A stretch of 54,562 nt of DNA, filler included, from Jimgerdemannia flammicorona (lineage: Eukaryota): NCBI GenBank assembly GCA_003990765.1. It is 3 parts of 3 records of this genome, joined end to end, with 100 filler letters (N's around TTAATTAATTAA, not from the genome) between each part and the next. Parts side by side here need not be neighbours in the genome. Positions count along the whole stretch, not along the records: positions 36,443 to 54,562 come from RBNJ01002298.1; 2 more parts are not named here. The stretch is one strand, 5' to 3'. The notes under the pieces were generated by a model. It did no database searches. It saw only the letters and a program-made list of their open reading frames with translations, and had not been told where the DNA came from. The translations under genes were made by a program, and so were the position numbers. Positions 5,445 through 51,050 of this stretch are shown piece by piece; within the stretch, counting starts at the first letter, position 1; each line of letters starts with the position of its first letter.

Positions 5445-5914
5445 GTTGTTAGTCTCTTTTCACTGAAAACGATGTCAAAAGTGCCTTCCAAAGGTTGTGT
5501 AACCTGAATGATACTAGAAAGAGATGACCATCTAGTGAAGATTGTCATACTTCTTCCTATAGGCCTCCAGAATATCTTTGTAAATAGTATTGGTACTTGG
5601 TAAATATAAATCATACTTGAGAAGGCCAAAAATGCTATATAATTAGTTACTCTCAAAAGTTGTAAATGATTGGTCTGTATATATAATCTAGCAAATGAGT
5701 TAATTTCAAAATTTTGTCAAAAAATAAAACTAAATATTTTTAATTAAATAGAGTTATTGATATAGAAATAGTCAGGCAATCAGATAAATATATCCACCAT
5801 AGCTTAGATATTGGTTTTATCTGTTTCTGTATTATTTTTGATTTTGTTAGAGTATTTGTCTTTTATATATCAATATATATTCAAAATTGACCCATCAAGC
5901 ATTTTGAACTTTCC

Positions 5915-12542: not shown

Positions 12543-13590
12543 GGTTAAGCTCGACCTCTTGGTCGAGTTTGGAATAGTCGGTTTTTATTGCGTCCGCAAT
12601 ATTTTGGTTGGCCAACCCGAGTCCCTTTGCTATATTGAGATGTTTGATTTGCGCTATCAACAAACACATATGCACGCCTCGAAAAACCGAAATAACCTTA
12701 GGTATTTTGGTCCGTCCGCCATTAATGGAAAACTCAAGCGTAAGTAAAGCCCCATAAGTCGAGCGGCGCATGTAGGGAAACCATTGGGTTCAAACCGAAC
12801 ATCGGGATTGAACATTTCTATTTTATTCTAATAATCCGAACCCGTTACCAACAACTGCCCATGGGGTGTTTAAAGGACTCATTTTATTGAATCATAATAA
12901 TCCTGGTCATAATTTACCAATTTTTCTTAGCCTTTTCTTTTCAATTAATGTTAACATAGCACACGTTACCTTTCCATTGTTTTCAAGCCGTCAAAAACTG
13001 GCCTTTAATTTCCGGCGCCGCTGTCCAAAATAAATGCAACGGAGATGTCAGTTGTATGTCGCGCTTATATGGGTCTTGGAAATGTGATTCAACGAAGCCA
13101 GGAGGTTCAACGACGCCGGCGAATTGAAAAGGACACGAATTTCGTCACGCAGTCACGCCTAAAAAATTAGATACAAGGTTATTAATAAATCGGCTCCAGA
13201 AAGAAGCCATTGCTCTTCATTTGTCGATTTCCCGCAGTCCTTCCAATTATAGCGTTGGAATGTTTGGCCACAAGGTAGCACCCATTGACACGCGATCGCT
13301 TCTCTATTAGCGCACCTGACAAACAGCTTTTGAACGTCGAGTCATGGATGTCCACCCTTAAATTTGAAGGCAGGTTCGCACTAAGCAACACAACAGATCA
13401 GAAGTGATACTAGTTAGAATGGCTGTAATGCGATTGAGCGTGAGTAAAGTAATGCTCTTGCCCGCTTACCATAGAATGTGAATATGCCAAATCAACGATG
13501 TGAATCTGGCTGCGGTCGAGACACATGTTACCAGTCACATGATATCAAATTATGTTGCCACCAGAATACAAATGAGACAGCCACTACTTG

Positions 13591-18122: not shown

Positions 18123-18222
18123 NNNNNNNNNNNNNNNNNNNNNNNNNNNNNNNNNNNNNNNNNNNNTTAATTAATTAANNNNNNNNNNNNNNNNNNNNNN
18201 NNNNNNNNNNNNNNNNNNNNNN
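18123..18222. other. Artificial scaffold join (N44-TTAATTAATTAA-N44)
   Basis: Exactly 100 bp of N with a stop-in-all-frames linker; identical to 36343-36442. Confidence 0.95.
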
Positions 18223-21443: not shown

Positions 21444-21638
21444 TGCGAGAGTTCCTGACCTGACCAGCACACGTTACGCGGTGTTCCACAAGGACAGTCA
21501 TACTCGGTCACATGCTAATTCTAAAACTCTCATCACCACCCTCTCCACCCTTCTTCCTCCCTCCTTCCTCCTTTTCCCATACCCTGCCACCTGTCCCACC
21601 CAGTCAACAGAAACAACCTCCCCCACACACATACCGCA
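21444..21638. promoter_or_regulatory. Putative bidirectional promoter (195 bp between divergent start codons)
   Basis: The CoA-transferase ATG at 21443 (-) and the CHIP ATG at 21639 (+) point away from each other; pyrimidine-rich tract at 21530-21600. Confidence 0.55.
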
Positions 21639-23898
21639 ATGAGCGCCGAAGCACACAAGGCCGCAGGTAACAAGCTGTTCTCACAGCAGCTATACGAGGA
21701 TGCCGTAAAGGAATACAGTACCGCAATCGTGCGTATACATTTGCCAGCTCATTTTTAGAGTACAGCGATTCACTCGCGCTTGGTTGGCTTAGCGGCGGTC
21801 GCTTGCTTGCTTGCTCGCTTACGAGGACCCCCCGTTGGACCTCTGAATCTGTGATCTCATAAAGTTCGGAGTTCGGTGTTGCCGTCAACAGCTTGATTAT
21901 TCTCAGACATCCCTCTGACATGGGCCGGTTTACATGAATTCCCACAGTGTCAGAACCCAACCGTCGCCACATACTACACAAATCGCGCTCTATGTCACTT
22001 GAAGGTAAGACCATCACTTTTTTGTGTGGCTATCACAGATGATGTCGTTGCTCACCATAGCCACCCAGTATTAGTCTTAGCACTCGACATGATCATAATG
22101 AACCCCTATTTATATTCCTCAAACAGCTCAAGAGGTTTGACGATGTGGTGGCCGATTGTAACCGAGCTGTCGACATCGACGAACGTGCTGGTGAGTTTTG
22201 GTGTTCGCGTTGTTTGGTCACGTGGAAATTGGCGCATGGGGGATGACGACAATTGCACGTAGCACTCTGCTATTTTCGGCGTATGTGCCACAGCCATCAC
22301 TACCGACCTAATCCCAACCTCGCTTCAATAACCTAGTCAAGGGCTATTATTTGAAAGGCCAAGCTCTGACTGAGAAGAAGCGGTACGCCGAGGCGCTGAC
22401 GGATCTGAAGAAAGGTGCACAGTAAGCTTTTTCTTTTTTTTGGAAATTCGCGCGCTGCGGCGGGAGAAGCACCAGCGTCGCAAGTTAAGTTGATGAGGTC
22501 GTACCCCCTTGGGTAGATCGTTGCTAATGCTCTCTATTTCTGTTGGTTCACCGGTGGTCGAAACCGAATGGCTTGGCGATCAGCATACCAATTGTCGCTT
22601 GAGGAGCCCATTAGTTACACTGCAGACATCCTGCATGCGTTGCTGCACGCGAGACGAAAGGTATGTGATTGAAATTGAGACGGAAATTGAGACGGAAATT
22701 GAGACAGGCATGAAGCAGAAACGCGAAAAGACGAAAACGGATGAGCAAGACAGGACGGCGATGGCAACAATTGGAGAGGGTCTATCATTAGAAACGAACA
22801 ATGACTGCAGTTTAAGCATCGAGAGCCTCCGCATTCGTGCTTCAGAAAGCCCAGACTTGTGTGATGTTTTTCCATGGACGTAGATTTGGTATCGGGTTTG
22901 ACTCAACAATACAGTTTGTTCAATAATGCAGAAATGGGAGACGGACGAGGTGAAGCGGATGGAGCAAGAGTCGGAACTTCTACGATACATGAAAATGTTG
23001 ATCAATAAGGACCGGCAGAGGCGAGTATAGCGCGGTCCGCGTGCGTGGTTGATTTCATGTGGAGTCGGCATACTGATAGATTTGAATGTGGAACCCACTG
23101 CTTAAAAACCCCATTTGGCTTGTTCACCGTCTATGCACTTCATGTAGTCAAAAGGCCTTGTTGAGGCGGGATGACCGGAGACGGCATGAGAATATTGATC
23201 AATCGCAAGTGAGTAGGATTGTCTCCTCGATTGGGTTTTGAGGAATTCACGCCTCGAGGCGAGGGCAAATCATGACCAGGGTCGGACCCATGATCAGGTC
23301 GTGGCGTGTGAAACGCCAAGGCGTTGAGCGCGCTGGGACTAAACTATTATGGTTCGCGATTGCTTGGCACAGGATGAACGACTGTCACAAATAGAGTCCA
23401 TATTCGAGCAGGCCGACGAGAACCTCAAGGTGGGTTACTAGTCGTCATTGAAATCATATATGTAGTTGGCATTGTGGATGCGGTCAGTTGGGTTCACAGC
23501 GATATACATGAATTTTCCTCTACATGTAGAAGCGGGACGTGCCAGATTATTTCGTCGATAAGATATCATTTAATATCATGCACGGTGAGTGTCATTAAAG
23601 GGACGGAGAGAGGGTAGTGATCGTTAGATTTGTTATTAACCTGGTTTACCCTGACTGCTTCTTTGTACCTCTCATTTCTGTGTTGTTTTCATGCCAATTG
23701 CTCCATCTAGACCCTGTCATCACCACGTCGGGCATCACGTATGAGAGGGATTCATTGCGCAATCACTTCAGGCGCATTGGTTACTTTGATCCTCTTACGC
23801 GGCGCCCGTGCACCGAGGAAGCGCTGATCCCGAACCTGTCGCTCAAAGAAGCGATCGAGGACTTCATAATCAAAAATGGGTGGGCGGCGGATTATTGA
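21639..23898 (+). CDS. STUB1: CHIP/STUB1 TPR + U-box E3 ubiquitin ligase (~10 exons)
   Basis: TPR exons MSAEAHKAAGNKLF..YSTAI, YYTNRALCHLK and VKGYYLKGQAL; a helical region; U-box [29 protein letters not shown]...FDPLTR...LIPNLSLKEAIEDFIIKNGWAADY*. Confidence 0.93.
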
Positions 23899-23909
23899 GG
23901 GCGAGTGGG

Positions 23910-23989
23910 ATGAAGTAGAGCGATGAAGTAGAGCGATGAAGTAGAGCGATGAAGTGGAGTGATGAAGTGGAGTGATGAAGTAGAGCGAT
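23910..23989 (+). repeat. 13-bp tandem repeat (GATGAAGTAGAGC) x~6 in the CHIP 3' region
   Basis: Directly visible, with variant units GATGAAGTGGAGT. Confidence 0.9.
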
Positions 23990-24554
23990 GGGAGATTGAC
24001 AAATCGAAAATAGACTGTTATTGATTATGAACGTTTGGCGTATCAAGGGGATCTTACATGGCTATGTGAACGATATATACACACATATAGGTTTTGTTTT
24101 TGTTTTTTTTTTAGATTTTTAATTAAGTATTTGCGGGTAACTGAAGTAGAAAATATTACAGTTTTTCCCTGAGATCGTCGCTTTGGGTGTGTAACTTTCC
24201 AAAAATAGGTTATGGGGGATGTAAGACGAGTAGCCGTTGGTGGGTGGAGTGAGGCAAATTCAAATTGGATCACTGAGGCCCAACACACAACCCAAGAGAT
24301 ACAACTTATTCCAGAAACACCTTGCTTAGCGGACGCCCTTTCTTCCCTAAAACTTCACCGAAGCCTTCTCGAACTCTTTGACCGCCCTCGGCGCCCCTGG
24401 CACTCCTTTCTTGATCACTGTCAACCACCACCCTTTTGATTGAACGACACACCCTCCCTCCGGAACTCACCCACACTCGAAACACTCCTCACCCCTCTCT
24501 ATCACCTCCTCCACACTACCCCCGACTCCCCACAACACACAACTCCGTCGCGCC

Positions 24555-27500
24555 ATGTCTATTCACACAGCGAAAGGCGCCCTCCGCAGCGTGTAAAGTA
24601 TTCTCGCCTATTGCCTCTCCTTGCTGTTCCGTCTTGTTCACGGCGCAGACTGGTGGTGTGGCACCGCCACTTGTCTCGGCGAAGAGTGACAACGCCGAGA
24701 TCAAATTGGCTCGACACGCCAAGGTGCACACGTTGTGAACTGGGTCTAAGATACCGGCCAGTGTTCTGGATAGCCTATCAAACCAGAATTTACGATAAAC
24801 TGCACCCCGAGTCAAATCAGTTCCAGACGACACATTACGCCACGTAGTGATATCTTTAGACGGGATTCTCGTGTTCGAGTCAGACAGGCAATTGCTTGGC
24901 AGCAGCGGAATTGATTACCTCTCAAGAACAAGTACCCCATGCTTCAACCTGGCTCACACTTGTCCATTCCAAAACATTCCCCTCTCTCGCTTCCCCTCTG
25001 AACCCCCCTCCTCCCTCCCCTCCCCCCCAAAAAAAATAATAATACAGTAAAAATTACGCAAAGGGTTACACCGATGTCCAGGCTAAGGTCCGGGAAGCGA
25101 CATCCAATGATCCATGGGGCCCGAGCGGCACTCTAATGAACGAAATCGCCCAGGCGACCTATAATCAGTGCGTTCTCGTGCCTTTTCTCTTCCTCTCATT
25201 GGGGTTTGAGTTGAAGACGCTTTGTGCGCATCTGTGTGGAAAACGAGAAATGGGTTTGGTTCTGCGCTATTTTATGCTAAAATCGGTATTTTTCAAACAT
25301 TGCACATTTTAGGCATGACTTCTTGGAGATTATGGAGATGCTTGACAAACGATTGAACGACAAGGGCAAGAACTGGCGACACGTCTTCAAGGTTAGATTG
25401 TCCTTTATTTGTTTCTGGAACGATTCATTTGCCCTTGGGTTTTTAAAAAAAAAAAAAATTACATTGGTGAAATTTGTTGCACAAATTAGGCACTGACCCT
25501 ACTAGACTACTGTCTACATCTGGGATCCGAGAACGTGGTTATTTACGTGAAGCAGAACCAGTATATAGTAAAGACGTTGAAGGAGTTCCAGCACATTGAC
25601 GAGGCCGGCAAGGACGTTGGCGCAAATGGTATGTAATGGTCTAGAATCTGATATAACTCGATATTGTCTGCTTTGCATTTTGCGGAGAGAATGCGGGGAA
25701 GACCGGTAAAAAAGAGTGGGGAAAATGTGCGACGGCTTGATGGCAGCCTCGAAATGGGAGGACCAGCGTGTCGTCAATGTTACGTCGATCACGACTTTAC
25801 TCATCGGCAAACCCCGCCCCACAGTTCGCCAGAAGGCCAAGGACATCACGAACTTGCTCGCGGATGATGCTCGGCTCAAGGAGGAGCGTCGTACGCGGTC
25901 GCAGATGCAGAACCGCCTGGCCAACAGCACGCGCGGCTTCGACGAGAGCATCCTCTGGGAGGGCGGTCAGCCGCCCAACCGCGACCGCGACGGGACCCCC
26001 ACGTACGACCGGCCCACCGGTGGCGAAGACGATCGCGAACTTCAGCGCGCGCTTGAGGAGAGCAAGCGGAGCGCAAGGGAGGACGAAATGAGGCGTCAGC
26101 ACACGTGAGTTTTGTTTGGGCATAAATTTTGTGTTTCGTGATTGTCAAGGGAATGGGGTTTAGCGTGATTTGGGAACGGGAAGCATGTTTTCCCACTGCT
26201 TATTGAATGGGCAATTTGATATCTAGCGTGACCGACAGCGACTCTGAATTGGCGAAGGCGTTGGAAATCAGTGAGAGGGAGGCGAAGGAGAAGGAGAGAC
26301 TGAAACGAGAACAAATGGAACGCCAGCAAAAGGATGCCGATCTTTTGGGTGGCTTTGATTCCACTCCTTCTACGTTAGTATCTTATTTAATCGTGCTATG
26401 TCCAAGAAAGCTGATGGTTGATATACCGGTTGTTCTAACGCAATCAATCCCCCCATTAGCTTCAACCCCTTCCCTCCTCAACAAGATTTCCTCAACCCTT
26501 ACGGCCAGCAGCAACAGCAGCAACTTGACTTCTTTGGCCTCTCTTCCCCCATTAGCTCCAACGCGCAGCTCCAATACCAGCAGCCTCAATTGACTGGCCT
26601 GTCCAACCCGTACCAGCAGCAGTTGCTGGCACAACAACAACAGCAGCAACAGCTCGAGGAGCAGCAGCGCCTGGAGCAGCAACGCCTGGAGCAGCAACGC
26701 CTGGAGCAGCAACGCCAGGAGCAGCAGCGACAACAGATGCTTCAGCAACAGCAGCAGCAGCTCATCCTGCAGCAGCAGCAGGTTCAGGAAGCCCAGCGTG
26801 CCGCGCAGCAGCAACTCCACCAGCAGCAGCAACAGCAGCAGCAGCAGGCCGCGCAACAGCAGTTGGCCCAACAGCAGGCCGCACAACAACAGCAGCAGCA
26901 GTACCTTCTTGCCCAGCAGCAGGCGGCGGCGCAGCAGCAGTTGTACAACACCCAGCAGCAGCTCCAACCCGCTCTCACCGGCAACAATCCTTTCGGCCAG
27001 TTCGGCCAGGTCAGCCAGCAGCAGCAGCCGCAGTTCGCGTCGTCGTTCGCGTCGTCGCAGCAGGGATTGTCGCCCCAGCAAGGATTGTCGCCCATGTCGC
27101 AGCAGAGACAGGTGGGTTTGGTGGGCAACGGTGGTCGGTCCCGAGTGGAGGAAGATTTTCGGTGAAGATGTGTCTGGGTTGTGTGGTTGGAAGAAGAAGT
27201 TGTATCTGCTGGTTGGGCTCGTGTGTTAATATTTGATCCCGTTGTCAAATTCCCATGGTTAGCTTACTGGCGACAACCGCTCGCAGCAGCAGCAGCAGCA
27301 GCAACAGGTGAGCGATCGTAGACATGACAGATTTTTGGTCATTACTTATGTCCATTATTCTTCGTCCAGTGAATATATGCTCAAATGTTTCTCCACTCGC
27401 AACTTTTTTGTATGCTTTCCTAAACCAATAGCTCTCAACTAGCAGTGCCTTCCCGAGTCCGGCATCACGGGCCGCAGACGAGCGCCATGCCAACTTGGTG

Positions 27501-28313
27501 ACCGCTCTTTCCAATGGGTGAGTTTTGAGGGTAGCAGTTAAGAAGACGAGGAGATATTCCTACGCTATTCCGCGATTCTAACAAGTAAATACGAATTCTC
27601 TAAATCAACAACAGTACGGGTATGGATACCTTCGGCAATGTTGGCAACCTGCGTATCCCTGTGTAAGTTTTATCAAATTGGGTAATTGTCCTTGGCGCAT
27701 CTTCTTCGGTCGTGCCTGACCTATTCAAACTTTCTACCAAACAGCGGGAGCGGCTTCAGCAATACGCTCACATCCGATTTCGCCACACCCTCGCCTACTG
27801 CGCCCAATCCCTTTGGATCTGTGCAATCCTCGGCCACCGGGGATCTATTGGGTCTGGGGGGCAACTCTAGTTTTGGCAGCTCTACGCAGGTGTGGAGATC
27901 AGAATTTTTATGCGATTCAACCACTACGGCAGGAATCATTCATCAGTTTTGCTTAACAATACACATTTTGTTCCTCTTTTCCGCATCAGCAGTCCTCGTT
28001 CAAACCCGCCTCTTCGCCCACCAGCTCCACCGCGAGCTTCACGGCTTCCACCTCCACCTTCGGTACGAGCGGCAGTCTACTGGACCTGGACGGCGGTGCT
28101 TCGTTCGGACAGCAACCGTCGCGGAATCCGTTTCAGTCGCAGACGTCTGCGAGCCCGTGGGGCGTCACCGCGGCCAAGACTGGTAACCAGCAGAGCCTCA
28201 ACGATCTGCTCTCGCAGCAGCGCCAGCAGCAGCAGCAGCAGCAGTTCGCCCAGCAGCAGCAGCAACCACAGTTCACTGGGAACTTTGGCGCGTCATCGTA
28301 CAATGGGCAGTGA
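24555..28313 (+). CDS. Epsin (ENTH domain, two UIMs, poly-Q, NPF motifs), multi-exon
   Basis: MSIHTAKGALRSV/KNYAKGYTDVQAKVREATSNDPWGPSG; RLNDKGKNWRHVFK/ALTLLDYCLHLGSENVV; UIMs DRELQRALEESKR and SELAKALEISERE; Q-rich exon 26.5-27.1 kb; several NPF motifs; GMDTFGNVGNLRIP; clathrin-box-like LLDLD. Confidence 0.93.
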
Positions 28314-28713
28314 ATGGATTTGGGTTCTAAGGGTCTCGTGCGGGGTTGGGCAAGGTTCGGCTGGGGTGGATGGCAAACTAGGGATGTACTTGTTTCGTTT
28401 GTCTTTGTTCCTTCATTCATTCTCTTCGCTTTGCGACCCTTACCACTCTTTGCTCGTTTGTGTTTAATCTTGATTCTGTTTTCCTCTTCAATAGTTTTTG
28501 CATTCTCCTTACCCTCTTCATATCATCCTTCTCTTTTTGTCATCTGATGATCCTCTTTTCTTCCCACATGTATTTGTTGTTTTGACGTTAAAAGCACAAA
28601 CGAGTTTACATATTTTTCCTGTCACGTTGAGCAGAAAGACTTGGCGACTGGTCGCAGGTTTCCACATTTCCTTGTTTGTAACCCGCCTTTGCCATCTTCT
28701 GAAAGAAAAAATC

Positions 28714-28754
<41 letters not shown>

Positions 28755-29068
28755 GAACAGATGCAAACGCAAACGGTAACCTTCCTCCCCCTTTCCCCAT
28801 ATCTACTTGTAGTTACAATTACATATAATGATCGTGTTTGTTTGAATGTCTTCGAAAAAATATTCTGCCAAGATATACAGGAGCATGGCCGACACAGTTC
28901 TCAGGATCTCGCTCTTGATTATCAATGGCATTTGGTAATAAATTCTAAATTCTATTTATAGCGCTTGACCCATAATGGCAATCATACTCGAGTGGCTTCT
29001 GGTCCTGGGCCATATTAGGACCGTCACGTTTCTTCAACGAGCTGCCCCTTGGCCATAACACTTCTGCA

Positions 29069-31334
<2,266 letters not shown>

Positions 31335-36342: not shown

Positions 36343-36442
36343 NNNNNNNNNNNNNNNNNNNNNNNNNNNNNNNNNNNNNNNNNNNNTTAATTAATTAANN
36401 NNNNNNNNNNNNNNNNNNNNNNNNNNNNNNNNNNNNNNNNNN
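36343..36442. other. Artificial scaffold join (N44-TTAATTAATTAA-N44)
   Basis: Same 100-bp linker as 18123-18222. Confidence 0.95.
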
Positions 36443-38319: not shown

Positions 38320-38765
38320 ATAAAGGCTAATTGGAGGGGTGTCTTCTGATCTATACCAAAAATATACTCTCTCATTTCTGAAGAGAACCTCTTATAGCCT
38401 GTCTTTAATATTTTATCCAGAAGGCCATTTGGGGGGGTATCTCTTGATTTGTACTAATGATGTACTCTCTCTCTAGAGGAGGGCCTCTCATGGCCAGTCT
38501 TTAGCATCTAGAGGAGGCTAATCAGGGGGGTATCTCCTAATTTATACTGGCTATATACTCTGCTTTAGCAGAGGATCTCTTCTAGCTGGCCTCCAATATT
38601 CATCCTTGAGAGGAGACTTCTGGCAGCTGGGCTCACCTGTCTTGCCATGGCAGAGATATCATGAGGATGACTAGAAGCTAGTTGAGAGAGTAACTCTCTA
38701 ATCTACACTGATGACATTCTTTCTCTTCAGAGGAGTATCTCTTGTGGCTGGTCTCTAGCATCCTT
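38320..38765 (+). repeat. Degenerate longer-period (~90-100 bp) tandem repeat
   Basis: Recurrent AGGC(T/C)AAT..GGGGGGTATCTC.TGAT.T.TAC...ATACTCTCT....GAGGA..CTCT....GCC.GTCT blocks at ~38324, 38421, 38514 and 38675. Confidence 0.6.
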
Positions 38766-39374
38766 CAGCATTCTTCTGCATCTCTCAGCATTTCTTATCA
38801 GTTATGTTTTTTTTTTTCCCATTCTAATAATCCCCCTCTTTGTACCCACTATTACTAGGTTCTTTTAGTACATTATTGTGAAATAGAGGCTGATTTTATC
38901 TCTGCTGATTTTGATCTAAGTAAATTACTAACTACTTTGAGGCAGGAGTTGGAGACCACTTTGGTGATTCTCTCAACTCTTCCATCTGGTGGAGTTAGTC
39001 CTAGGTTGGATTTTAGAAAACCCCTAGAATATAATATATATTTTGAAAAAGTTTTTAAGCTTACTAGCTTTTGTGATTGATATGAAGTAAGGAAATGATA
39101 TACTTCAGAAGATATTTAGAAGTCTCTACCATGAGAGATTGTCCAAGCTATGGCATTTTCATTTTCCTGAGAGCCCTCCTCTGATAGGTCAGAAAATATA
39201 TGATCAAATTTTTCAATATCTTCCCACTATTTGAGTAAGTTTCCAGAGTATTTTTTTTATTTTTATTTTTTTTTTTTGAGAAGAGGGGCTGCAGAGGTAT
39301 ACTTATCTAACCTGGATTATTTATAAGGTTATTTTGCTTTTTATTTTAATTTTTAGAAAGTGAAGAAGGATCAA

Positions 39375-40040
39375 TGTAAAGTATAGTTAGTAGATTTTTT
39401 AGATCAATAATAACAATATTGAATAGATCAGCAAAATCTCAAGACCAAATTTATTCAGACTCAGTTCTATATCTCAAGTCTGCAGAATTTCAAAATACTA
39501 AGAATTCCAAGGTTTGATCTTCCAGAAGGCCAGATAACAATACTTTATATATAAAATTTGGAGAAAGTAGAATGGCAATATTCTATTAAGTCTTCAGAAA
39601 AAGGGTACCAAAATCAGTTTCAAACTGTGCCATTTTTGGAGTTCTCTACTTTATCAGCTAGTATTCTGAATTCACACTGCAATTATATTATCTTAGATAC
39701 TGATATGCTGATATGGAAGAAGTTGTTCTTATCATTTAGAGGGAGATATTGAGAGATTAAGCAAGCTAGATTTTGACAGATATTTGTAAGAAGGCATTTA
39801 AAGTTTAGAAAGCTAGATTGTATGGTAAAGCTTGAGCTAGAACTAGATCTTACATATCATCTAGCTACACTTTGACCTATGCTGGAGGAATACATTGCTA
39901 TATTATATCTCTTAATAATTTTAAACTAAAAATTAGATAAGATAAATAGGAGGAATATGAAATAGCTATTATAAAGATGGCTTCACTTCTTTTCAATACT
40001 TCTTACTGGATGTGATAACAAATTCCCCCACTTCACCCAA
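39375..40040 (-). mobile_element. Probable 3' LTR (39375-40020) with polypurine tract
   Basis: Minus strand reads GGGTGAAGTGGGGGAAT(T), then TGTTATCAC... through ...TTTACA. Internal TATATAAAG and AATAAA are present. Confidence 0.5.
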
Positions 40041-40884
40041 TTTTTGACCAGTTCAATGCTCTCTATTGTTTATCTTCTAAGAAAATTTCAGGGAGTATCC
40101 CAATATTCTCAGCACTCTCAGCATTCTTGGAATCCCTAGTATCCTTAGCATTCTTGGTATCTCCAGCAACTCTGATATTCCTGGTATCCTCAGTATCTCT
40201 GATATCTCTGGCATTCCTAACTTTGGTATTCTCAGTATCTTTGATATCTCTGACTTTATTAGCTTTGAAATTATCTAGAATAGATAGAGATCAGATGAAT
40301 CTGGATCAATTTAGAATACATTTTAGACTTGGAGGATTTCAGTTTGAGCAAAATATAGTAAAAGTCAGTAACATATTTTTTGACTGATATGCAAGCTCTC
40401 CTACTTACACTGATTAAGACATGATATCTGTTTTACTCTACATTGTCAAATATAAAGAACAGTATATGGGGCTTGTTCTACAATTTGGCTTATAGTATTG
40501 GAGTTCCACTAGAGTCTAATATAATGATAATGTTTCACTCAAATCAACCACATAGTTCAACAGTTATTAGAGATGAGGAAGTTTTAAATAGTTTATCTCT
40601 AAGTATTTGTTACAGAACCTTGGAAGCTATGTACTGCTATAACAAATTTTTTGAAAACTTAGGAGAGCAAAAAAATCAGTAGATATTTTGTATATTTGGT
40701 AATTGATTTTTATATTATATCTTAGTTTTCAAAAGTTTAGCAAATATAGTGTCCTTTTTTTAGGTTTTTTTTCCACTAAAGAATTGCTCTTTTTGGTGAG
40801 CTTGTTAATTTGTACTAGCTGACTTCTAATTTAGTTTAGTTTGTCATCTAAAGAATTTGCTGGAATTCTAGCTCCTGAGGTAAA

Positions 40885-41085
40885 TTTGAGCTGGTTTGAT
40901 TAGGTTCAATCTGATCTGAACTTGTCATAAACTGAATTCAAATTTGAATTGATCTGAATTCATCATGTGATAAATTTGAACTGATTTAAATTCATCATAT
41001 AATGAATTTAAACTGACTTGAATCAGACACATAGTTGGTAAATTCGAATCAGATTCAAATTTCTCTAACTTGATTGGAATACTAA
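40885..41085. mobile_element. hAT-type terminus that truncates the gypsy RT
   Basis: GAATTCAAATTTGAA-type repeats ending TTGGAATACTA, the same end as the 17108-17239 MITE; gypsy RT sequence resumes directly beyond it. Confidence 0.6.
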
Positions 41086-44000
41086 TCCTAGATAAGATAT
41101 ACTAGTTCTTGATAGTGATCTTGTTAAGAGCTTTGTAGTCAATATATATTTACAAAGAGCCATCCTTCTTCTTGACAAACAAAATGGGGGCTCCAAATAG
41201 AGAATGGCTGAGTTCAATATATTCTTGAGCCAATAGTTTGGTCAACTTATCTTTGAGGGTCTTGAGTTCAGATTGGATCAGCTGGTAGATACTCTTATAT
41301 AGAGGTTCAAAATCTGGAATGAGATCAATTCCATATTGAATTTGGTGCTTAGATGGAAGTCCTTTGGATTTCTAAAATACATCTAAACAGTTCTTAGACT
41401 TCTGGTGAAATTGAACTACTTGGAACTTTAGTGACATCTTGTACAGTACAGATGAAGTAGGTATTTTCTTTTTTATAAGAGAGTCTCTTCATTTAAATGG
41501 CAGAGATGATTTTAATTTCTTGATAACCAGTATCTTCTTGAGGTATCAGGATGATCTTTCTATCTTTATAGATCAGGTTAACCTCATTGATCCTTCAGTT
41601 GATACATATCTGGGTTATACTGGGTCAATCAGGTCTTTCTTAGGATAATATTTTATCCTAGAAGATCTATGATACTAAAGTCTAATTTCCCTTGATATTT
41701 GCCAATCCTGAGCAATAGATCTTTATAGATCTTGGTCAAAGGTGCAGTCTTATCATCACTAAAGATAACACTCCTTTTCTCAGTAGCTGGTCTGCTTTGG
41801 ACTCTAATTCTCTTGGCAGTCTTAGTATTAATATAGTTTTTAGTAGTACTACTGTCTAGTAGGACATTGAAATCTTATCTGTGAACTTGATCTTTGAACT
41901 TAATGTATCCTCCTTCTTGATGATGTTAAGCTCTTCATTCTCATTGTTCCAGTTGCTGTCAGTCTTCTTGAAGTCAATCTCTCTCCATCCTTTATAAGGA
42001 GAGTGGTCTTGTTTGGATTCCTCAGTCTATTGGACTTGATGTCTTTCAGAATTGATTTTGAAAACCTTAGAGAGGTATATATGGTATTCATTAATATATT
42101 CTATGTATTATATTTAGATATAATGAGAGTATTGTCCATATAGTATATAATTATCTGCAATTCTCTTATATTAGTTTTTATCATCTTCCTTCATAGTAGT
42201 AACCTTTTGACTGGGGTGGTTTATTGGTTAATCTAAACTCTTTCTTATTATGGTCTATCTGGGAGAGCTCAGGGACTTCTTCAATAGTAAGATCTTGATA
42301 TATTTCTTTGATAATTGCTTGGACAATTCTTTGGCCTGCTTTGACTTCAAATGAGATATCTTCAAAATTTTGCAAAATGATCTAGATTTTACCAGTAAAT
42401 CCTTAGTCAACTACTTCTTCTCTTAGCTCAATATTGAATTCTTTAGCCAGGCTATTTCACTTAGTAAGATGGATATATGTTTCTTTGGTAGCTTGTATTG
42501 CAATTCTAGTATGTACTGTAGTATTAGTACTTGGTGGAATAGTAAGGTCTTGGCTACTGTAGAGGTTATATCCTATATCAGTAGGATGGGCCTTAGTGGG
42601 GATGGTAGCCTTATACCATATCTTCTACACTTTGATGACATTCTCAGAGTTCTTCTTTTCTGAGCCTTCTCCAATAACAATAATATTCTGGTTACTAGAT
42701 TTACCTGATCTATTTCTCTTCTCAAGATATCTGACTGAGATGTGTCCTAACTTTCTACAAATGAAGCATAATCCTTTTTCACAAAGCTACTTCCTTTCAT
42801 CCTTGTTGGGAGATCTGGGTCCTCTGGGGTTTCACTAGTTCTTTTGGTTATTTCTTTGATTATTTTTTAATCATTCCTTCTGGTGAGATTCCTCCTATCT
42901 TGGTTATCCTTCTTGTATTCTAGATTTCATAGGCTCTTCTTTATACTTAGGCAAAGTACCATGAGTAGTAGAGACATCCTTAGAGAAGGCCTTGTTCTTT
43001 TATCTTCTGGGTGAGCCGGTCTGATAGGACTACAAAGAGATGGTTGACTCTGATACTATTGATGGTTAAATTGTTATCCTGATAGATAAGTTTTATGGTT
43101 TTGAGGTAGACATCTATCCTGATGGTAAAGGTTTCTAGGTCCTCCTTATCATTCTTGTGAAACTTCATCTGAGTTAGTTTGTTCCAAGTTTCTTATATGT
43201 ATATAGGCTGTATTTCAGAATTTAGTCAGTAATAGGGCCTTGAGTTCTGAGCCTGCTATATAGTCATCCCAACTTGGTCTATTATGGGCAAGTATCTGTC
43301 TATTAACTTTAAAGTGATCTTCTCAGATTACTGAGTATTCTTCTAGGGTGCACTAGAACTTAGCTGCTATTCTAGTAAAGAATATTGCTACTATTTCCAC
43401 TTGTGCTGCTGATGTAGCAAACAACTGATAGAGGGTGTTGTCTTGGTTATTAGTGAGCATTCCTGTAGATACTTAGTTATCATTTCATTGGTTTGTTCAG
43501 TATTCTGTATCAGCTATATTGATGAAGGTTTCAATTTTACTGTTTTTTCTACTGAAAGTGAGGATTCTCAAGGTTTTGGTTAGTTTATTCTGTTCAGTAA
43601 TTCATCCTACTATCTCTACTAGTATGGCTAGCTGGGTAGTCAGTACTGTAATATTAGTATCTACTATTATATTGACTATTGGTAGTGGGCCTATAGGGAT
43701 AGATTCTCTTGAAGATTATTCTACTTAGTGAGGTTATAGTGCTATATAACTTAGAGTTGCTTGATTCCTAGATATCAGATCAAAAAGTCCTATAAGAGAT
43801 AGTAAACCAAACCTCTGTATAGATGGCTGAATTGGTTCTGGAGTCTGGTCTTCTTGACCTATGGATCCTTGGTAAATTCTTAGACCTGCTATTCCTTATT
43901 GGCTATCATCAGACTGGTATTCTGTAGAGTCTTTGTCTGACTCCCTTTTCAGATGAGATAGTGCATCCTCATACTAACTAGGTTCTTCAAAGAAGATATT

Positions 44001-45337
44001 AGGTTCTGGCTAAGTAGATGGGCCTACTTCTTGATCAGCAGTAGGAGATATATATAGGTGACCTACTTACTTATTCTCATATCTTGTAATAGCAGAAGTA
44101 TAGTATACAACTAGCCTATAGTAGAGAGAGGTCCTGTTAGAAGGATGATGGTATCTGTCAGATATAATCTACTCAGTAGTTACTTCTCTTACTACAGGGA
44201 GTGAGATATAATCTAAAAATTCCTGAGTAGCTGTAAAGTAGATTCTTAAGTTCTAGTGGTTATAAGATAGCTATGGAGAAGTTTGTAGAATCTACAACAG
44301 CTAACTATATTTCTAAGATCTGGGTGGAAAGTTCTAAAAACCTGGTATAGATTCTTATATGCTTAGTCAATTATAAGCTAATGAGTCCTTGGGTCTGTGT
44401 TTCCTGATACTATCTGATCCTAATGACAAGAGCTTGTCTGACTCTGGTTTGGAGGTTTGTTTTTAGGAAATCTATAGTTAGTTCTGAGAGATTACTCCTA
44501 TCTAAGATTAGTCTTATTCTAACTTCTTAGAAGTATATTCTTAATATCTTCTTGGCTTGGTAATTCTACTGCTACCAAGTTATAATAACTCTTATTGCTA
44601 TCCCTCTCTTATTATTTGGATAATTAGAGAAACAAGATATTACTTAGAGACTTAGTATATAATGTATACTAAGAAACCTTTAGTATGAGAAAGCAGTCAC
44701 TTAAAAGTAGTTGTAGCAGTAGTATCCTTATTAACTATAGTTATAAGGAACTTGTTCTTTGCTGTATATAGACTGAATTTACTTAAGTTTTTGGAATTTA
44801 TATACTAGTTTCAGTTCTGATAGAAGTTAGCTAGACTTTTGGAGTTTAGTCAGAAACATTAGAGTTACTTAGATGTTATTAGTAAGACTCAAGAGAATAT
44901 GTATATGAAGAGGAGAACTTGATTCTTGTATTAAGAACTGAACTAAAACAGCTTTATTTTAGATAGAAACTGGGAGGTATTTATATAAGTTGATTTGCAA
45001 TTTCTGACTAAATATAAGTGACTAATTTGGTAACTATAGTGAGATTTGTGATTGTGATCTTTGTTAGGTAGTTTGTAATCAGGAACACTTTATGATCAGG
45101 ACCTCTATTATTAAGTAATAATTAGCTACTGCAGTGCTGATTGCTGTAGTACTGATTATTGGGAGTAAGCTGGATATTATTTTATTTACATCATTTGTTT
45201 ATTATATTTGTCATTTATATATTATATATTATACTCAATTGATGGTAACATCATCACTAGATCACATGATTGCTCATTGTATATTACATCTCATCTGTTT
45301 ATTTATTCATTCATTATGTCTCATTCATTCTATTACA
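41086..45337 (-). mobile_element. Decayed Ty3/gypsy retrotransposon: 5' LTR (44581-45337), PBS, gag with CCHC, dUTPase, protease, RT N-terminus
   Basis: PBS TGGTAGCAG; knuckle GLCFICRKLGHISVRY at ~42725-42775; dUTPase at 42220-42600; protease FNVLLDSSTTKNYI at ~41830-41875; RT [34 protein letters not shown] at 41105-41215. Confidence 0.9.
42220..42630 (-). pseudogene. dut: Trimeric dUTPase domain within the gypsy element
   Basis: One frame reads PTKAHPTDIGYNLYS...VHTRIAI...K*NSLAK...EEVVD*GFTGKI*IILQN...EVKAGQRIVQAII...ELSQIDHNKKEFRLT, matching motifs 1-5 after reverting transitions. Confidence 0.85.
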
Positions 45338-45389
45338 GAAGTCAGAAATTAATTAAATTCTAAGAAGTAAGAATTACTCTTAGTTCTTA

Positions 45390-47205
45390 AAAAAAAATGA
45401 AAAATATTAGAAGAGTAAAAGATATATAGAGTATTCTTTTATATTTTGAATATACTATATAGAAGAAATTTTACAAAACTAGACAAACTGAATATAAGAA
45501 AGCACTCTAATTTTTAAAAGTTGGATATAGTTGTAGTTGCTCTTCTAAAGTTTCTAAGAAAGTATTTGCTGAGATATGCAAGACTTTTCAAGTTCTTTCC
45601 AAAGCAGAATAAGATATCTTTTTAATAGTCCAACTCAAGATAATGAATGGTAGATCTATAAATACTAGTTGCTATCTTAAGAAGAAAGCTTACATTAATA
45701 AAAGAACTTTATACTGCTAAGGCTGTAATATATCTCTTTACCAGAAACTCTATTTAAATATATTGAGAATTGATCATACTCATTTTGAAAATATATGAGA
45801 TCATCTATTGAAAATAGCCTTTTATTATAGCTCTATAGTAATATCAAAAGAATATCTTAGTAAAAAACTAAAATAGTGATCAACCATAATATTGCTACTA
45901 CTGTTAAGAATTTTCTTTTGAATTATACTGAAGTTTAAGAACTGCCTAGTCCAGTGAGAAATTTTAATCATATGACTCAATCATTAATATTTTTACTAGC
46001 AGAAATAAGCTTTAAATTTATTCACTATAACTTTTTAACTGGCCTGGAAGATAGTACTCTGCACACTTTAAAATATGATACCTTTTGTAAATTATAGCAT
46101 CAACTAACTCTGCATATCTAAATCATGAGTCCTCAAACTGACTTATGTAATACCTGTTAATATTTGCAGAATGATTTATAATTTAAAGTTCATAAAAAAG
46201 AAGAGACTTAAGACTTATTAAAGAGGTATAAAGAGCATCTTGCCAAAGTCAAGCTAGAATAAAATTATTATAACAGAAATATCAAATTAATAGAAGAATA
46301 AAAAAAACTCATTGATCAGAATTATTCTATACTGAAAGACAAGATATCATTCTACTGTATTAATACAGTTGTCTATTATAGTTATAACTAAGCCCAAAAT
46401 ATTTATATACCTTATTCTAATCAACAGATTGACAAAGTATATTATCTTAGTACTTATAAAATATATTTATTTAAAATCTAAGATGAAGCAGTTTGTAAGT
46501 AAATTAATTATATTCTTAATAAGAATGAACTACTTGAAAAGGGTTCAAATAGTATACTTAATCTAGTCTTTGATGGAATTAAGCAATTGAACTAAGGTGA
46601 AAGGCACTTAAAAATCACTTATAATAATATAAGCAGATAAAACAAAAATAATATCACTTTTTGGTTTTATTTGTATTTAGTAATTTACAAGTATTATGAA
46701 AGTATTGAATTAAACTTCATGGTTCCAGACCATACTAAATTTAAATATAATAGTAGTTTTGATCTGATTAAAAGACTTTATTGCAAAACCATAGCAGACT
46801 ATATAGATTATATCATCAATATAGTAAAAAGATCTAGTATTGCTAGATTAAATAAAACATGATATTATAACAATAGTGAAAGTTTTCAATACTTTGACAT
46901 TTTGAGTAGTTTGGAAATATACTTCAAGAAGCTATCTGGTATGCAAAAGTTTCAATATTTTTTTTTACCAGAGTAAATCCAGATATTGTCAAAGTCCAAA
47001 AATTGCCAATAATCTATTTTAAGAATTAAAACTATTAAAAAGTAATAAATTTAAGACTTCAAAAGTTATAGAAATAATTAAGACCTTGTTATTTCTAATA
47101 CTAGTACCTTTTCTTATAGAATTGAAATATCAGAAATATCTTTATCATAATATTTGCCTCTTTATCCAAGATGAATTTAAAGATATTACTTATCTAAAGC
47201 TAATT
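45390..47205 (+). pseudogene. Decayed DNA transposase (Sola-like DDD family)
   Basis: Relics ELPSPVR, IMSPQTDLCNTC, ITYNNISR*NKNN (from ITCDNAGGQNKNN) and FMVPDHTKFKYNSSFDLIKRLY (from PGHTKF.CD..FGLIK). Superfamily assignment is by motif recall only. Confidence 0.6.
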
Positions 47206-47239
47206 TATACTATCAATGAATAAAAATATTTACTTCTTT

Positions 47240-47821
47240 ACTTTCAATTAAGATTATTTTTTAATCTTGATTTGAGTTATGAATTAGCTATTTTGTTTTT
47301 CTAATTGGACTTTTAATTTGTTTAATTTTTTTAACCTTTCTACTTCTGCCTCTAATTTTTTTAATCTTATCTAATAATTCTTGCTTCTGTCTTTTACTTC
47401 ACTCTCTGGATTTTTCTATAAAATTCTTATGGGCTTCTCTTTTTTTAGCTATTATTCATTTAGTATTATTTAATTATTCTTATAAGATATTTATTTGCTA
47501 TTCATATCTAGTGGATACTCTTTCTTTATAAGATAAGACTAGAAGTTCTTTTTTATTACTATTAGAACAATTGTAATAAAAACTCATTCTAGTCTTTAAT
47601 TGTCAATATTTCTCATATTTAGATAGTTCATTATTCTCAAATTTTTCCTTATACTCTTTATAAGCACAAATATTACTAACTATTTATATATGACTTACTT
47701 TACTCTGAGTTCTAATTTGACAAATCACTTTATTTCTCTTATTAAAATTAGGGCAAACATCACAAGTTATATCTTTACCTCATTTCTCTAATTCTAAAAT
47801 AGTATAAAGTAGTTCTTTCAT
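47240..47821 (-). pseudogene. Decayed bacterial-style gene 2 (Mollicutes endosymbiont-like; TGA read as Trp)
   Basis: MKELLYTILELEK(TGA)GKDITCDVCPNF...EKY(TGA)QLK...SRE(TGA)SKRQKQELLDKIKK/LEAEVERLKK...FITQIKIKK; starts 1 nt after the stop of gene 1; no introns. Confidence 0.55.
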
Positions 47822-47822
47822 A

Positions 47823-48940
47823 CTACTTAATCTTAACTTCTATCTGAACAATTATTTCTTGAGTTTGAGACTTAATTTTTTCTATCAATTTCTGAGTCTT
47901 AACTTTTATTTCTATTCCTAAATATTGAAATCTGTTTTGCTTTTTAAGTAAAAGAGGTAAGGGCTTATTGGCTAAATTAAGTAGTATTTCCTATATTTGA
48001 ATTATTTCTCTTACTTTTCTCAATAATTCTATATTATTTCTCACTTCCTCTCACAATTTTTGAATTTCTCTTTCTTGATTTTCAATTATAATATAATTTT
48101 ACTGAATGATTTCTAAATTATTTTCAATTTTCTCTTTTAAAGATATTTCCTTTTTATTATTCTATTTCTTACTAATTTTAGTAAAAAATATAAAGTGAGT
48201 TTTGGTATCTACTTCCTAATAATTCTCACAACAACCTTATTGAGTTTATCTAATTTACTATTTTTGATTTTCTCTAATAATTCTTATAGTTCTCCTTCCA
48301 ACTAATAAACTCTTTCATTTTCTATATCCTCTTCTGTTAATTCAGAATAATCTAATAAAATTTCCTTGATAGTTTTCTTAAACTTTTATGTTCAATTTTA
48401 ACTTTTGTAGTTTATTCAGTAATATCTTTATTATATCTTTAAGAGAAATACTATGAAGATCATAACAATTTCTAAACTCTTCTCTTTAGTCTTCTTCAAA
48501 TGGTTTCTTTTTTATCTTATCCTCTTCTAATTATTTTTCAATAATTTTCTTACTTTTCTCTGAATTTAAACCTTGTAGAGTAGAGAAAATATCTTTTTTA
48601 GCATCATTTATTTCATTATAGTATTTAAATCAATTATTATGATATTGAATATATTAATAAAGTAAGTAAATATATATATTCTTGCTGAGAACTTTCAGCA
48701 GAATAATTCTTGCAAAGTCTTGGTTAGTATTTTTCATTATTAATTTGAGTAATTTTATCAACTACTGCTAGATTAAAATTATGAGTAATGTATCTATTTC
48801 TTAAATATTTGATTATCTCTTATTCAATTTTTTCATTATTCAACTACTTAACTTATAATAGTATTTTTAATTGTTTAATTTGGTTTAATAATTCTTTGTT
48901 TCTCTCTTAGAGTTTATTGATTATATTTTTTGTTATAAAT
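47823..48940 (-). pseudogene. Decayed bacterial-style gene 1 (Mollicutes endosymbiont-like coiled-coil protein)
   Basis: (M)TKNIINKL*ERNKELLNQIKQLK... ending PISPLPLLLKKQNRFQYLGIEIKVKTQKLIEKIKSQTQEIIVQIEVKIK*; K/E/I/N-rich with TTA/GAA/AAA codons; a few frameshifts. Confidence 0.55.
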
Positions 48941-49659
48941 TTATATATATTTTTTCTTTTATATACTTATATATATATATTTTATAAGATTATATTAAGT
49001 ATATAAATTATTTTAGTTAAAACAAAAAATAATAGTTATTTTTCTTTAATGTAGTTCTGTTAGAATGAAAGAAATATACCAGATTTTGGTATTTTATTAA
49101 TAATAATCCAGTTATAGAGGAATTTATAGTATGAAAATAAAGAAATATTTCTTGAAAGAATTTATATTCTGCTCCCAGAAGAGCATTAGGCTATAGTTCT
49201 ATTGCTTACTATAATTATTCTAGTTATTGAATTATTAAAAAGTATAAGCAAAGTGACAATAAAAATAAAATCTTCAAGTCTGATAAACAAGTGATATCAA
49301 ATGTTCACTTTGTCTGATTTTGTTATAGCATGCTCTATATAATACTTATCAGTAGCTACAGAAAGTCATCTGATCAGGTTTGAACCCCCAGTCTGTAGCC
49401 TAGAGGATAATATCTTAATAGGATAACTAACTATTTATCTAAAGTCAAAAGAAGAAAATTTCAAACTGATGAAATTCAGTAATTTTCATATAATTGGTAC
49501 ATACTCTACTTATAGTAACAGGTTACATATCTCTCTAGAAATGTGATCAAAATGAAGTCACACTAGATAGGTAAATAAGTATAAATACCCAGAATAGAAA
49601 TATACTATAACTCTCATTTCTCTCTCTCTTTCCTAAATAAAAAAAAATCTAAAAATACC

Positions 49660-51050
49660 TGCTACCTACTACCAAACAGCCCACTATAGCCAGACTCTTT
49701 TAAGCCAGATTGACTATCTTTTTGAACATATTCAGATTGCTATTCAAGATAGAAATCACTACTCTGAGATCCTTAACCTCATTAGTCAGAATCTAAGATA
49801 CTATGTTCTCAATTGCTATAAAGTTATAGATAGGGTCTATCTTATCACTAACTATCTTGAAATCTGGTATGAATATAAAATTAGATACCAACTTCTCCAA
49901 TAAGTATAAGACCTAACTGCTAATCAAGTTGTAGACTGGACCTACTTAGATAGGCATGAGCAAAGACTAGCTAAGAAGGTCTATCAAATTATATACCATA
50001 TATCTTTTATAATCTCCAACCTTAACTACATATAACTGAAGGATTTTCAGAATCTCTTTTTCTCTGAGATTGATATACTGGAGATCAGAATTGCCCAAGA
50101 ATTCTACTTTTGGATTACTCTTAAGTCTACTAACTGTGAACTCTACTAGAGTTCTCTTCTGAATGATAATTCAGACCAATGGTTTCAAGGTCTTTCTGAT
50201 CTCTTTAAAGAACCATCTATCTGAATAGACATCCCCAGGTATGATGAGCAAAAACTCTACTTAGATGGTCTTAACTATATTAGATAAAGAACCTCTACCT
50301 CTATTCCACTGTCTGGAATAGTTCAAGAACTATTTATAGATCTGATTGACTTCTCTATCTTTAATACTGAGCTATCAGTAACTATCCCTCTAATTACTGG
50401 TGGGAATGGCAATAACAATAAATTGAACAAAGAGAAGAATACCCCAACTCCTCTCCTAGTTTTCAATTTTTAAATCAATATAAATATTGACTTTTAAGAG
50501 AGAAAAGATGTAATAAAATAAATGAACAAGATGTGATGAATTATCATATGACTCAGTGATAATATTACAATTAAATATGATATATAACAAATATAATAAG
50601 ATATAAATAATATAAATAATACAAATAAATGATATCCAGTTTATCTCTAGCAACTAGTACTACAGCAAATACTATAGTAACTGATCATTGTCTAATAACA
50701 AAGTTTCTGATCACAAAGGTCATAATCACAAATTTTATCCATAGTTACCAAATTATCACTCATACTTAGTCAGAAATTGTGAACTAACTTATATAAATAC
50801 CCCCCAGTTTCTATTTAAAATAACTCTAAAAGCCTAGCTAACTTCTATCAGAACTGAGACTAGTATATAAATTATAAAGACTTAAGTAAATCTATTATTG
50901 AATCAGAATTCCAAGATGAATTCAGTCTATACATAGTAAAGAATAAGTCTCTTATAACTATAATTAATAAGAAGAATACTACTACTATAACTACTTTTAA
51001 GTAAGTACTTCCTTATACTAAAGACTTTTTAGTATACTTATATACTGAAG
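49660..51050 (+). mobile_element. 3' end of an LTR element: decayed unknown ORF, PPT (50496-50508) and LTR (50509-~51050) of the same family as LTR 44581-45337, in opposite orientation
   Basis: AAGAGAGAAAAGA|TGTAATA...; 50.6-51.05 kb matches the reverse complement of 44.65-45.2 kb (e.g. CTAGCTAACTTCTATCAGAACTGA). Confidence 0.75.

Follow-up and report, generated by a model that had tools for sequence, protein, structure and literature searches.

A stretch of 54,562 nucleotides from the genome assembly of Jimgerdemannia flammicorona (GCA_003990765.1; G000 hereafter), made up of three contigs with positions counted along the whole and referred to here as the window, carries on its third contig (G000:C2298) the remnant of a cut-and-paste transposon with terminal inverted repeats (TIRs), the cargo of which is a pair of genes and the transposase of which is written in genetic code 4, where TGA encodes Trp. 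The remnant is very probably a copy, in nuclear DNA, of a transposon of the type belonging to Mycoplasma-related endobacteria (MRE). The explanation favored here, to which a probability of about 0.6 is assigned, is that a fungal transposon entered an endobacterium, was recoded there, and re-enters fungal nuclei repeatedly. An earlier note on positions 47240-48940 had described two genes as Mollicutes-endosymbiont DNA that had been integrated in the nuclear genome and had decayed; that the DNA is of a code-4, endobacterial type is borne out by codon tables and by AT-rich code-4 relatives in soil contigs. The element comprises the following features.

45351..49340, no strand assigned: transposon remnant with transposase, two-gene cargo, and right end; GC 0.225, zero CpG
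45473..45487, plus strand: internal copy of the TIR core, 14/15 bases, just before the transposase N-terminus
45490..47223, plus strand: decayed transposase of the DUF7869 (Sola-like) family in genetic code 4, start approximate; PF25273, E 2.7e-9
47821-47230, minus strand: gene 2, decayed, ~197 codons, with a Cys-rich zinc-finger-like head and a long coiled coil
48936-47823, minus strand: gene 1, decayed, ~370 codons, with a coiled coil, variable N-terminal half, KPLPPLPKK motif, and tail AQIEVK
48937..49289, no strand assigned: gene 1 upstream and subterminal sequence, common to copies (blastn), with matches upstream of gene 1 in L084, L080, and L081
49290..49336, minus strand: right TIR, decayed; the intact form starts GGGGCGTGCTGCAACAAAACC
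49337..49340, no strand assigned: ATAT, a probable target-site duplication

Other copies resemble the window sequence over 45351-49340, and the resemblance ends abruptly at 49340; the left arm is absent from the window copy, where a long terminal repeat (LTR) retroelement adjoins the left side. A search of G000 with a 35-nt TIR pattern (at most 2 mismatches) gave 250 matches and the reversed control gave 0, and at one locus (L026) the two TIR arms are identical over 51/51 nt. Outside the first 30 perfect TIRs, the adjoining bases are ATAT in 28 cases, AAAT in 1, and ATTT in 1, and in the assembly sequence the outer flanks of 24 of the 30 have host-like CpG (observed/expected ratio, o/e, of 0.75 or more), a sample that the selection of perfect TIRs biases towards undecayed surroundings. 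Both TIRs were present in 5 of 25 G000 loci examined, 6.3-9.3 kb apart, with ATAT on both sides in 5/5. Because ATAT is palindromic and an empty site was not seen, these bases could be part of the TIR, but the AAAT, ATTT, and AATT variants favor a target-site duplication. The stretch 47240-48940 is itself a repeat, with 49 matches in G000 (the best 40 of 122 candidates were scored) at identities of 64-89%, self excluded, and gene 2 has 115 matches; copies of the element in this genome number well over a hundred. The gene pair is not a lone fossil, and that the stretch is a repeat inside a transposon had gone unnoticed in the earlier note.

Measured against the majority sequence among 11 close copies, the window copy has 63 G>A, 36 C>T, 33 T>C, and 27 A>G changes and 8 transversions. 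The stretch 47240-48940 has a GC content of 0.217 and zero CpG, like the adjacent nuclear repeats and unlike the host genes of the window, in which CpG is near expectation, and it does carry the TAA and TAG lesions that had been likened to those of the flanking repeats. Transfer to the nucleus followed by decay, as proposed in the earlier note, is supported by the host-like flanks at many independent sites and by decay mainly of the C>T/G>A type; a one-off passive transfer is not. Matches similar to the internal TIR core precede the transposase in L154, L158, L165, L166, and L041 as well, and this internal copy is a putative, possible self-binding site. Next to the broken left side of the transposon, positions 38500-45350 hold the decayed remains of an LTR-type retroelement in which a dUTPase is encoded (PF00692, E 5e-17), and parts of 44664-45182 reappear inverted at 50627-51037.

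Three Asp residues of the transposase (D311, D390, and D432) are invariant in 35 sequences and would constitute the catalytic triad. A structure model of an intact relative (pLDDT 82.6) is similar to the cores of integrases and of Mos1 (Z up to 10.8, rmsd 2.5, 131 aligned), and the enzyme is predicted to have an RNase H fold of the D/D/D type; Foldseek alone returned no match to the transposase model at E<=0.001. The codons at conserved Trp positions bear on the genetic code in which the enzyme is read. In nuclear copies, W135 (n = 30) is TGA in 25, TAA in 4, AAA in 1, and TGG in 0, and W312, beside the first catalytic Asp (n = 42), is TGA in 34, TAA in 7, TAG in 1, and TGG in 0; in a larger set of 49 copies with at least 150 aligned codons, 36 of which cover both sites, TGG occurs at W135 or W312 in 0. 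At W214, a true TGG site that served as a control (n = 37), the same counts are 16 TGG, 13 TAG, 5 TGA, 2 TAA, and 1 CAG, while Arg sites encoded by CGA, a second control, have mixtures of TGA and CAA. The intact relatives L080, L081, and L084 contain 2-4 in-frame TGA codons at conserved Trp sites, and intact relatives exchange TGA and TGG between them at the same Trp positions. With W135 and W312 free of TGG, a standard-code ribosome halts before the catalytic core, and the full enzyme is producible only by code-4 ribosomes.

The gene pair has the same character. As the earlier note had it, the two genes are intronless and separated by 1 nt (the junction AAG TAG T ATG AAA lies at 47828-47816, and its pattern is matched in 5/12 close copies), and their codons are rich in A, which makes up 49% of gene 1; the start codon of gene 1 has mutated from ATG to ATA. 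Of three TGA codons that the note had considered plausible Trp sites, those in LEK-W-GKD (n = 19: 8 TGA, 5 TGG, 4 TAG, 2 TAA across copies) and SRE-W-SKR (n = 24: 9 TGA, 2 TGG, 7 TAA, 5 TAG, 1 TAT) are indeed Trp in intact homologs; the third, in EKY-W-QLK (47605), is Arg or Gly in homologs and 10 AGA and 7 TGA in copies (n = 22), and is thus most likely a CGA>TGA lesion. Better sites are found in gene 1, where the nuclear copies have native TGA at W73 (n = 26: 22 TGA, 4 TAA, 0 TGG), W103 (n = 27: 24 TGA, 1 TGG), W136 (TGG in 0/30), and W176 (TGG in 0/28). Gene 1 has 57 relatives at E<=0.001 in a full HMMER search; a word search of longer proteins, for which a 193-aa piece of gene 1 was the query, returned no match. 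A Pfam scan of both genes gave no match, a structure model of gene 2 (pLDDT 73.7) gave no match in the PDB at E<=0.001, and an ESM Atlas search with gene 2 returned unnamed clusters only.

A C-terminal tail common to both genes had also been proposed, and it is real, although gene 2 does not end at FITQIKIKK* as had been read: this TAA and the next stop align to Trp in relatives, in which the tail is AQIEVKKWPWxKVKK, and the true stop is at 47232-47230, so that the stop codons of gene 2 and the convergent transposase are only 6 nt apart. An AQIEV tail is present within the last 22 aa of 72/138 code-4 ORFs (open reading frames) versus 18/1258 internal windows; the tail-positive ORFs are nearly all homologs of genes 1 and 2, collected by searching with one of the two, and the tail is absent from truB, HU, SOD (superoxide dismutase), and transposases. 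The tail is a candidate export signal, as the earlier note had suggested. The KPLPPLPKK motif of gene 1 (window ~47960-47985, minus strand) is proline-rich and conserved among gene 1 relatives; it resembles SH3 ligands, and it hints that gene 1 may act in the host cytoplasm.

Relatives of these genes occur in DNA of bacterial type. Gene 2 has 9 intact protein relatives (45-85% identity) and, among 92 pattern matches in JGI metagenomes, 51 confirmed soil loci, which have GC contents of 28-36% and read well in table 4 only. There, gene 2 usually comes after a relative of gene 1, and neighbors include truB, HU, and an Fe/Mn-SOD (L063), L31 (L095), GmrSD and LRR-HET (L086), and DDE_3 transposases. 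Another neighbor, at L061:1373-2389, is an Ala/Gly/Asn-rich code-4 ORF with 12 TGA and 0 TGG that is unlike the rest. The transposase is present in 13/51 soil loci and a TIR of the window type in 8/51. In L085 and L086, a 5.25-kb element bounded by related TIRs of 38-46 nt that share a CAACAAAA..ACAAAGT core contains gene 1, gene 2, an LRR gene, and a convergent code-4 transposase, which is the layout of the window, and around it lie code-4 LRR-HET, GmrSD, and MazF-like genes; the two loci diverge beyond one TIR. The L086 transposase is split at an A9 run (7976-8030), the point at which proteins P0100 and P0096 start, which suggests that the split may reflect programmed slippage. P0100 belongs to Ca. 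Moeniiplasma glomeromycotorum and is 52% identical to the L084 transposase. In a quick protein tree, this protein clusters with L086, and the two together are sister to the TIR clade (SH-aLRT 99); the Rhizophagus proteins (25-40%) fall outside that clade, the members of which are rows from G000, soil, Ambispora, Diversispora, Geosiphon, and Gigaspora.

Gene models from arbuscular mycorrhizal (AM) fungi appear to bear the imprint of the same code. In 17 such models, 34 of 43 gaps (at least 14 residues) span a Trp site versus 13.5 for random placement (0/5000 draws), as expected if gene predictors skip TGA. Among proteins P0077-P0134 (Ambispora, Diversispora, Geosiphon, Gigaspora), apparent introns skip transposase Trp sites, and some remains are fused to kinases. 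MRE genomes themselves are annotated with table 4 (PMC10507103). One metatranscriptome run (X23) gave low-depth cover of 16/30 L084 bins, which is not proof of transcription. Two soil runs gave summed depths of ~400-1600 over the transposase versus 8-18 over the arm and cargo, a difference that fits many variants with differing neighbors and is not a copy number, and 26 of the 36 soil-read variants listed (from 40 of 303 rows) are at third codon positions.

The history of selection on the transposase was read from 49 nuclear copies by comparing second-position (535) with four-fold (162) sites, using transversions only because C>T decay is thereby hidden. Private variants are near neutral (53/535 versus 19/162, ratio 0.84). 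The ratio is 0.34 for variants common to two copies and 0.20 for those in three to four, and it falls to 0.07 for those in 5 or more (13/535 versus 59/162; Fisher p 2e-11). Variants common to several copies have thus been under strong purifying selection, and private ones are neutral. In a tree built from the 44 copies that have at least 300 codons, the pattern is the same: changes number 158 four-fold versus 36 second-position on its 43 inner branches, 31 versus 12 in cherries, and 164 versus 78 on tips, against a neutral expectation of ~3.3 second-position changes for each four-fold one. Recombination depresses the value for tips, and a signal of it is seen in incompatible site pairs (83/229 near versus 577/1123 far); MRE are reported to recombine (PMC4916391). 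Eukaryotic DNA transposons within one genome are described as evolving neutrally (PMC7070016).

The favored explanation orders these observations as follows. A fungal DUF7869 (Sola-like) transposon would have moved into Mollicutes-related endobacteria, as the protein tree suggests. Inside them it took up TGA codons for Trp and acquired bacterial passengers such as the gene pair, and a TIR-bounded copy stands among code-4 genes of a bacterial chromosome, within which the element would have transposed. Element DNA would then reach the nucleus repeatedly, probably after its release from the bacteria in complex with transposase, and this enzyme would insert it at ATAT sites. Once in the nucleus, the code-4 genes cannot be read, and the repeats decay by C>T changes, for which a methylation-linked cause is probable. 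The window would hold one such dead copy, the left side of which was later cut by the LTR element.

The passengers of the element complicate a strictly one-way route. Complete copies in G000 have the order TIR, 3-5 kb of host-like DNA, a short ORF (ORF X), transposase, code-4 cargo, and TIR, and in all five of them the left arm has a GC content of 40-50%, normal CpG, and the standard code. Almost none of the left arms is related to another; for two of them that were searched, no near-identical parent was found in G000 (best 74% over 0.9 kb), and one of the searched arms matches another element at 88% over 0.9 kb. Two left arms contain Crinkler N-terminal domains, and five long arm ORFs have 5-9 TGG each and zero in-frame TGA, with three host-type arm genes ending in TGA. 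Host-type ORFs are found upstream in the soil copies L084 and L081, too. Such arms must have been captured in the nucleus, which needs either an active enzyme there or a return trip. In the right arms (n = 16), the gene 1/gene 2 pair is present in 4, another code-4 gene of ~520 aa in 11, and part of the latter in 1.

Several of these passengers deserve description in their own right. The second cargo gene (L152:8122-9660, minus strand, and 10 more) encodes ~520 aa with a Cys-rich head, NSPHFYMWIVPKY, which we take to be HIT-like, a coiled coil, and a C-terminal membrane helix. ORF X (L090:2220-2678 and most G000 copies) is a conserved code-4 ORF of 60-70 aa that lies before the transposase in either orientation and, in soil copies, next to the TIR. 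A Pfam scan of the second cargo gene and ORF X gave no match. Crinkler genes were considered as the core of the element and rejected: they have 134 matches in G000, and only about five contigs were recognized as carrying the element too.

These arms raise the possibility, tentative and clearly less probable than repeated entry itself, of a two-way shuttle, in which the element is translated and selected only in the endobacterium, enters nuclei, and leaves with host genes (Crinkler-type, kinase-like) in its left arm. If this were true, the element would carry DNA from bacterium to fungus and back, and bacteria that switch hosts would bring DNA from one fungal order to another; the element would be what took fungal genes into MRE genomes, and the gene pair with its tail might have a role in delivery.

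Next in order, and unlikely, is that MRE DNA leaked passively many times, much as mitochondrial DNA does, with an element that had already diverged arriving each time, and that a host-code Sola transposase later trimmed or moved the copies in trans and captured host DNA. Selection on inner branches would then reflect variants that arose in bacteria, capture of host arms would take place in the nucleus as it must, and standard-code DUF7869 genes do exist in Rhizophagus; the clusters P0078 and P0079, to which we return below, may be nearly standard-code. Against this, a stop-free DUF7869 gene is absent among the scored G000 matches: a transposase search yielded 565 candidates, of which the best 107 were scored and all but one 33-residue piece have stops; DUF7869 gave 140 matches (best 150 of 180 scored), none with an open frame >277 aa; and with a Rhizophagus transposase as query none of the best 67 of 498 matches that were scored is stop-free. 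Furthermore, the copies end at a TIR and ATAT followed by host DNA rather than bacterial flanks, no MRE truB fossil was found in G000, and selection is visible down to cherries.

Somewhat less likely again is that the bacterium exports the transposase protein alone, so that nuclear copies are mobilized and host DNA is captured, while fresh element DNA enters rarely. Copies with no readable gene could then move, and the unique host-type left arms and the size range of 6.3-9.3 kb would be explained. Action in trans, however, predicts that common variants are neutral, yet selection is seen at every clade size, and the transposase carries no AQIEV tail. That the compartment in which the genes are read is instead a fungal code-4 mitochondrion, a mitochondrial plasmid, or a virus-like replicon is very improbable: table 4 is also the fungal mitochondrial code and scans of GTDB were negative, but relatives of the cargo adjoin truB, HU, Fe/Mn-SOD, L31, DDE_3 transposases, GmrSD, and MazF-like genes, the clade includes the named Ca. 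Moeniiplasma protein, and two IMG/VR scans were negative as well (154 and 21 pattern matches, 0 confirmed); no viral Pfam domain was found in the cargo scanned. We give still less credence to a host that reads through UGA often enough to make the transposase. Readthrough could produce cis-like selection in the nucleus, but two to three in-frame TGA codons precede or lie in the catalytic core, each followed by A or G, where the leaky UGA context is a following C, and host-type arm genes use TGG only, three of them with TGA as their stop. Chimeric assembly of MRE and host reads can be dismissed, even though the junctions are known from the assembly alone and fungal assemblies often contain MRE contigs (PMC11423566), since identical, sharp TIR/ATAT junctions recur at dozens of different sites and the copies have C>T decay and zero CpG like neighboring nuclear repeats and unlike intact code-4 relatives.

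Several observations weigh against repeated entry of a recoded element as we favor it. The host-type left arms mean that a one-way route is insufficient alone. Not all Trp sites are free of TGG, which occurs at W87 in 4/29 copies and at W403 in 26/43, and some intact relatives have just two TGA. The protein clusters P0078 and P0079, with 33 and 4 members that are often fragmentary and come mostly from JGI contigs of 37-236 kb, start after W135 and read through later Trp sites; they probably represent another genome with many copies, and near-standard-code transposase lineages may exist. The assembly is fragmented, and the searches for a helper enzyme in it scored 67 of 498 and 150 of 180 candidates. 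Two copies, L003 (C800) and L006 (C7013), have an identical right flank, which means that some copies were duplicated inside the nucleus along with their surroundings. In nuclear copies, gene 1 lacks the purifying signal (common variants 8/366 versus 1/62, ratio 1.4, few sites) and gene 2 has a weaker one (ratio 0.21). The protein tree was built by a quick method with 55 rows and midpoint rooting. The Mollicutes-endosymbiont origin proposed in the earlier note is argued for by the code, the neighbors, and one named Ca. Moeniiplasma transposase, but the gene pair was not found in a named MRE record (GTDB scan, protein relatives). Scans of GTDB genomes gave 17 pattern matches for gene 2 and 23 for the transposase, 0 confirmed in either case; like the IMG/VR scans, these are weak negatives because short exact patterns were used. 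A search of G000 with MRE truB gave one weak, partial match of 44% in GC-rich DNA, so that no MRE contig was seen. Some transposase records attributed to AM fungi may be MRE contigs in fungal assemblies, to judge from what PMC11423566 and PMC10507103 report.

Further features lie elsewhere in the window. Positions 762-5460 (minus strand) hold long endonuclease-like and reverse-transcriptase-like ORFs with a GC content of 50% and CpG o/e of 0.1-0.2, a non-LTR retrotransposon by ORF reading. The host gene at 11378-12584 (minus strand) opens with a signal-peptide-like segment and contains YTAVWR repeats, which resemble a bacterial tandem-repeat domain; a bacterial origin of this gene is possible. 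Ordinary spliced host genes occupy 19600-31100, and we take them to be CoA-transferase-like, epsin-like with a long poly-Q, and nucleotide-sugar dehydratase-like. Runs of N with 12-base spacers lie at 18123-18222 and 36343-36442, and ORFs that cross them are artifacts.

The route by which DNA passes between MRE and their hosts is not known, and transfer from fungus to MRE has been documented gene by gene only. If the favored explanation is true, the element is a natural cross-kingdom delivery route with a built-in marker of compartment (TGA versus TGG), and its nuclear copies keep a dated record of earlier infection by MRE in hosts from which the bacteria have been lost or filtered from the assembly. 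AM and related fungi are hard to transform, and the element may offer a means to put DNA into them. The results also carry a warning for annotation, as AM-fungal gene models appear to invent introns around transposase TGA codons.

Outside subscription journals and supplements, no report was found of a eukaryote-type transposon that was recoded in an endobacterium and re-enters nuclei; this transposase may be listed in supplements of the principal papers on MRE genomes. The closest known system is that of the Sola DNA transposons, reportedly described by Bao and colleagues in 2009 (Sola1/Sola2). The likeness lies in the TIRs, the 4-bp AT-rich flanks, the RNase H-fold transposase with three invariant Asp, and passengers that differ between families. 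We take 5'-GRG termini and DUF7869 to be marks of Sola2, and the ends of the element are GGG in the nuclear type and GAG in L085/L086. Sola2-Fanzor elements are listed with the flanks ATAT, AAAT, and ATTT (PMC3627910), the same three as here, while an AWWT flank is given as a hallmark of Sola1 (PMC3845634). Relatives of the element occur in Rhizophagus, in which Sola1 and Sola3, not Sola2, are the families that PMC5751038 reports. Unlike Sola, the element has code-4 genes, a complete relative in a bacterial chromosome, purifying selection among the copies of one nucleus, and passengers in two codes.

Transfer of genes from fungus to MRE, which Naito and Torres-Cortes are both said to have described in 2015, offers a second parallel in that a fungal-type gene resides in MRE, recoded, between bacterial genes. 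Such transfer is documented in PMC10507103, PMC5982333, and PMC10386755, and in the main text of the first of these 'transpos' has 0 occurrences. What differs here is that a transposase gene together with its ends is involved and that traffic returns to the nucleus. Endosymbiont and organelle DNA in nuclei is well known from Wolbachia inserts and nuclear mitochondrial DNA segments (NUMTs), which are likewise endosymbiont-type DNA decaying in host chromosomes; the inserts described here, unlike those, are not random fragments but hundreds of copies of a single element family, with exact TIR ends next to target-site flanks. Transposases are put at 1-8% of non-orphan genes in MRE (PMC4916391). 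The insertion sequences (IS) and composite transposons of MRE resemble the element in their code-4 chromosome and their passengers. The split of the transposase at the A9 run is comparable to that of frameshifted IS genes. In contrast to MRE IS elements, the closest relatives of the transposase mark its family as eukaryotic, and most of the copies seen are nuclear. Lastly, the element resembles Pack-MULEs and similar cargo transposons in that differing captured host DNA lies between the TIRs of each copy, and it is unlike them in having long intact host ORFs among its passengers and a host that is unable to make the transposase.

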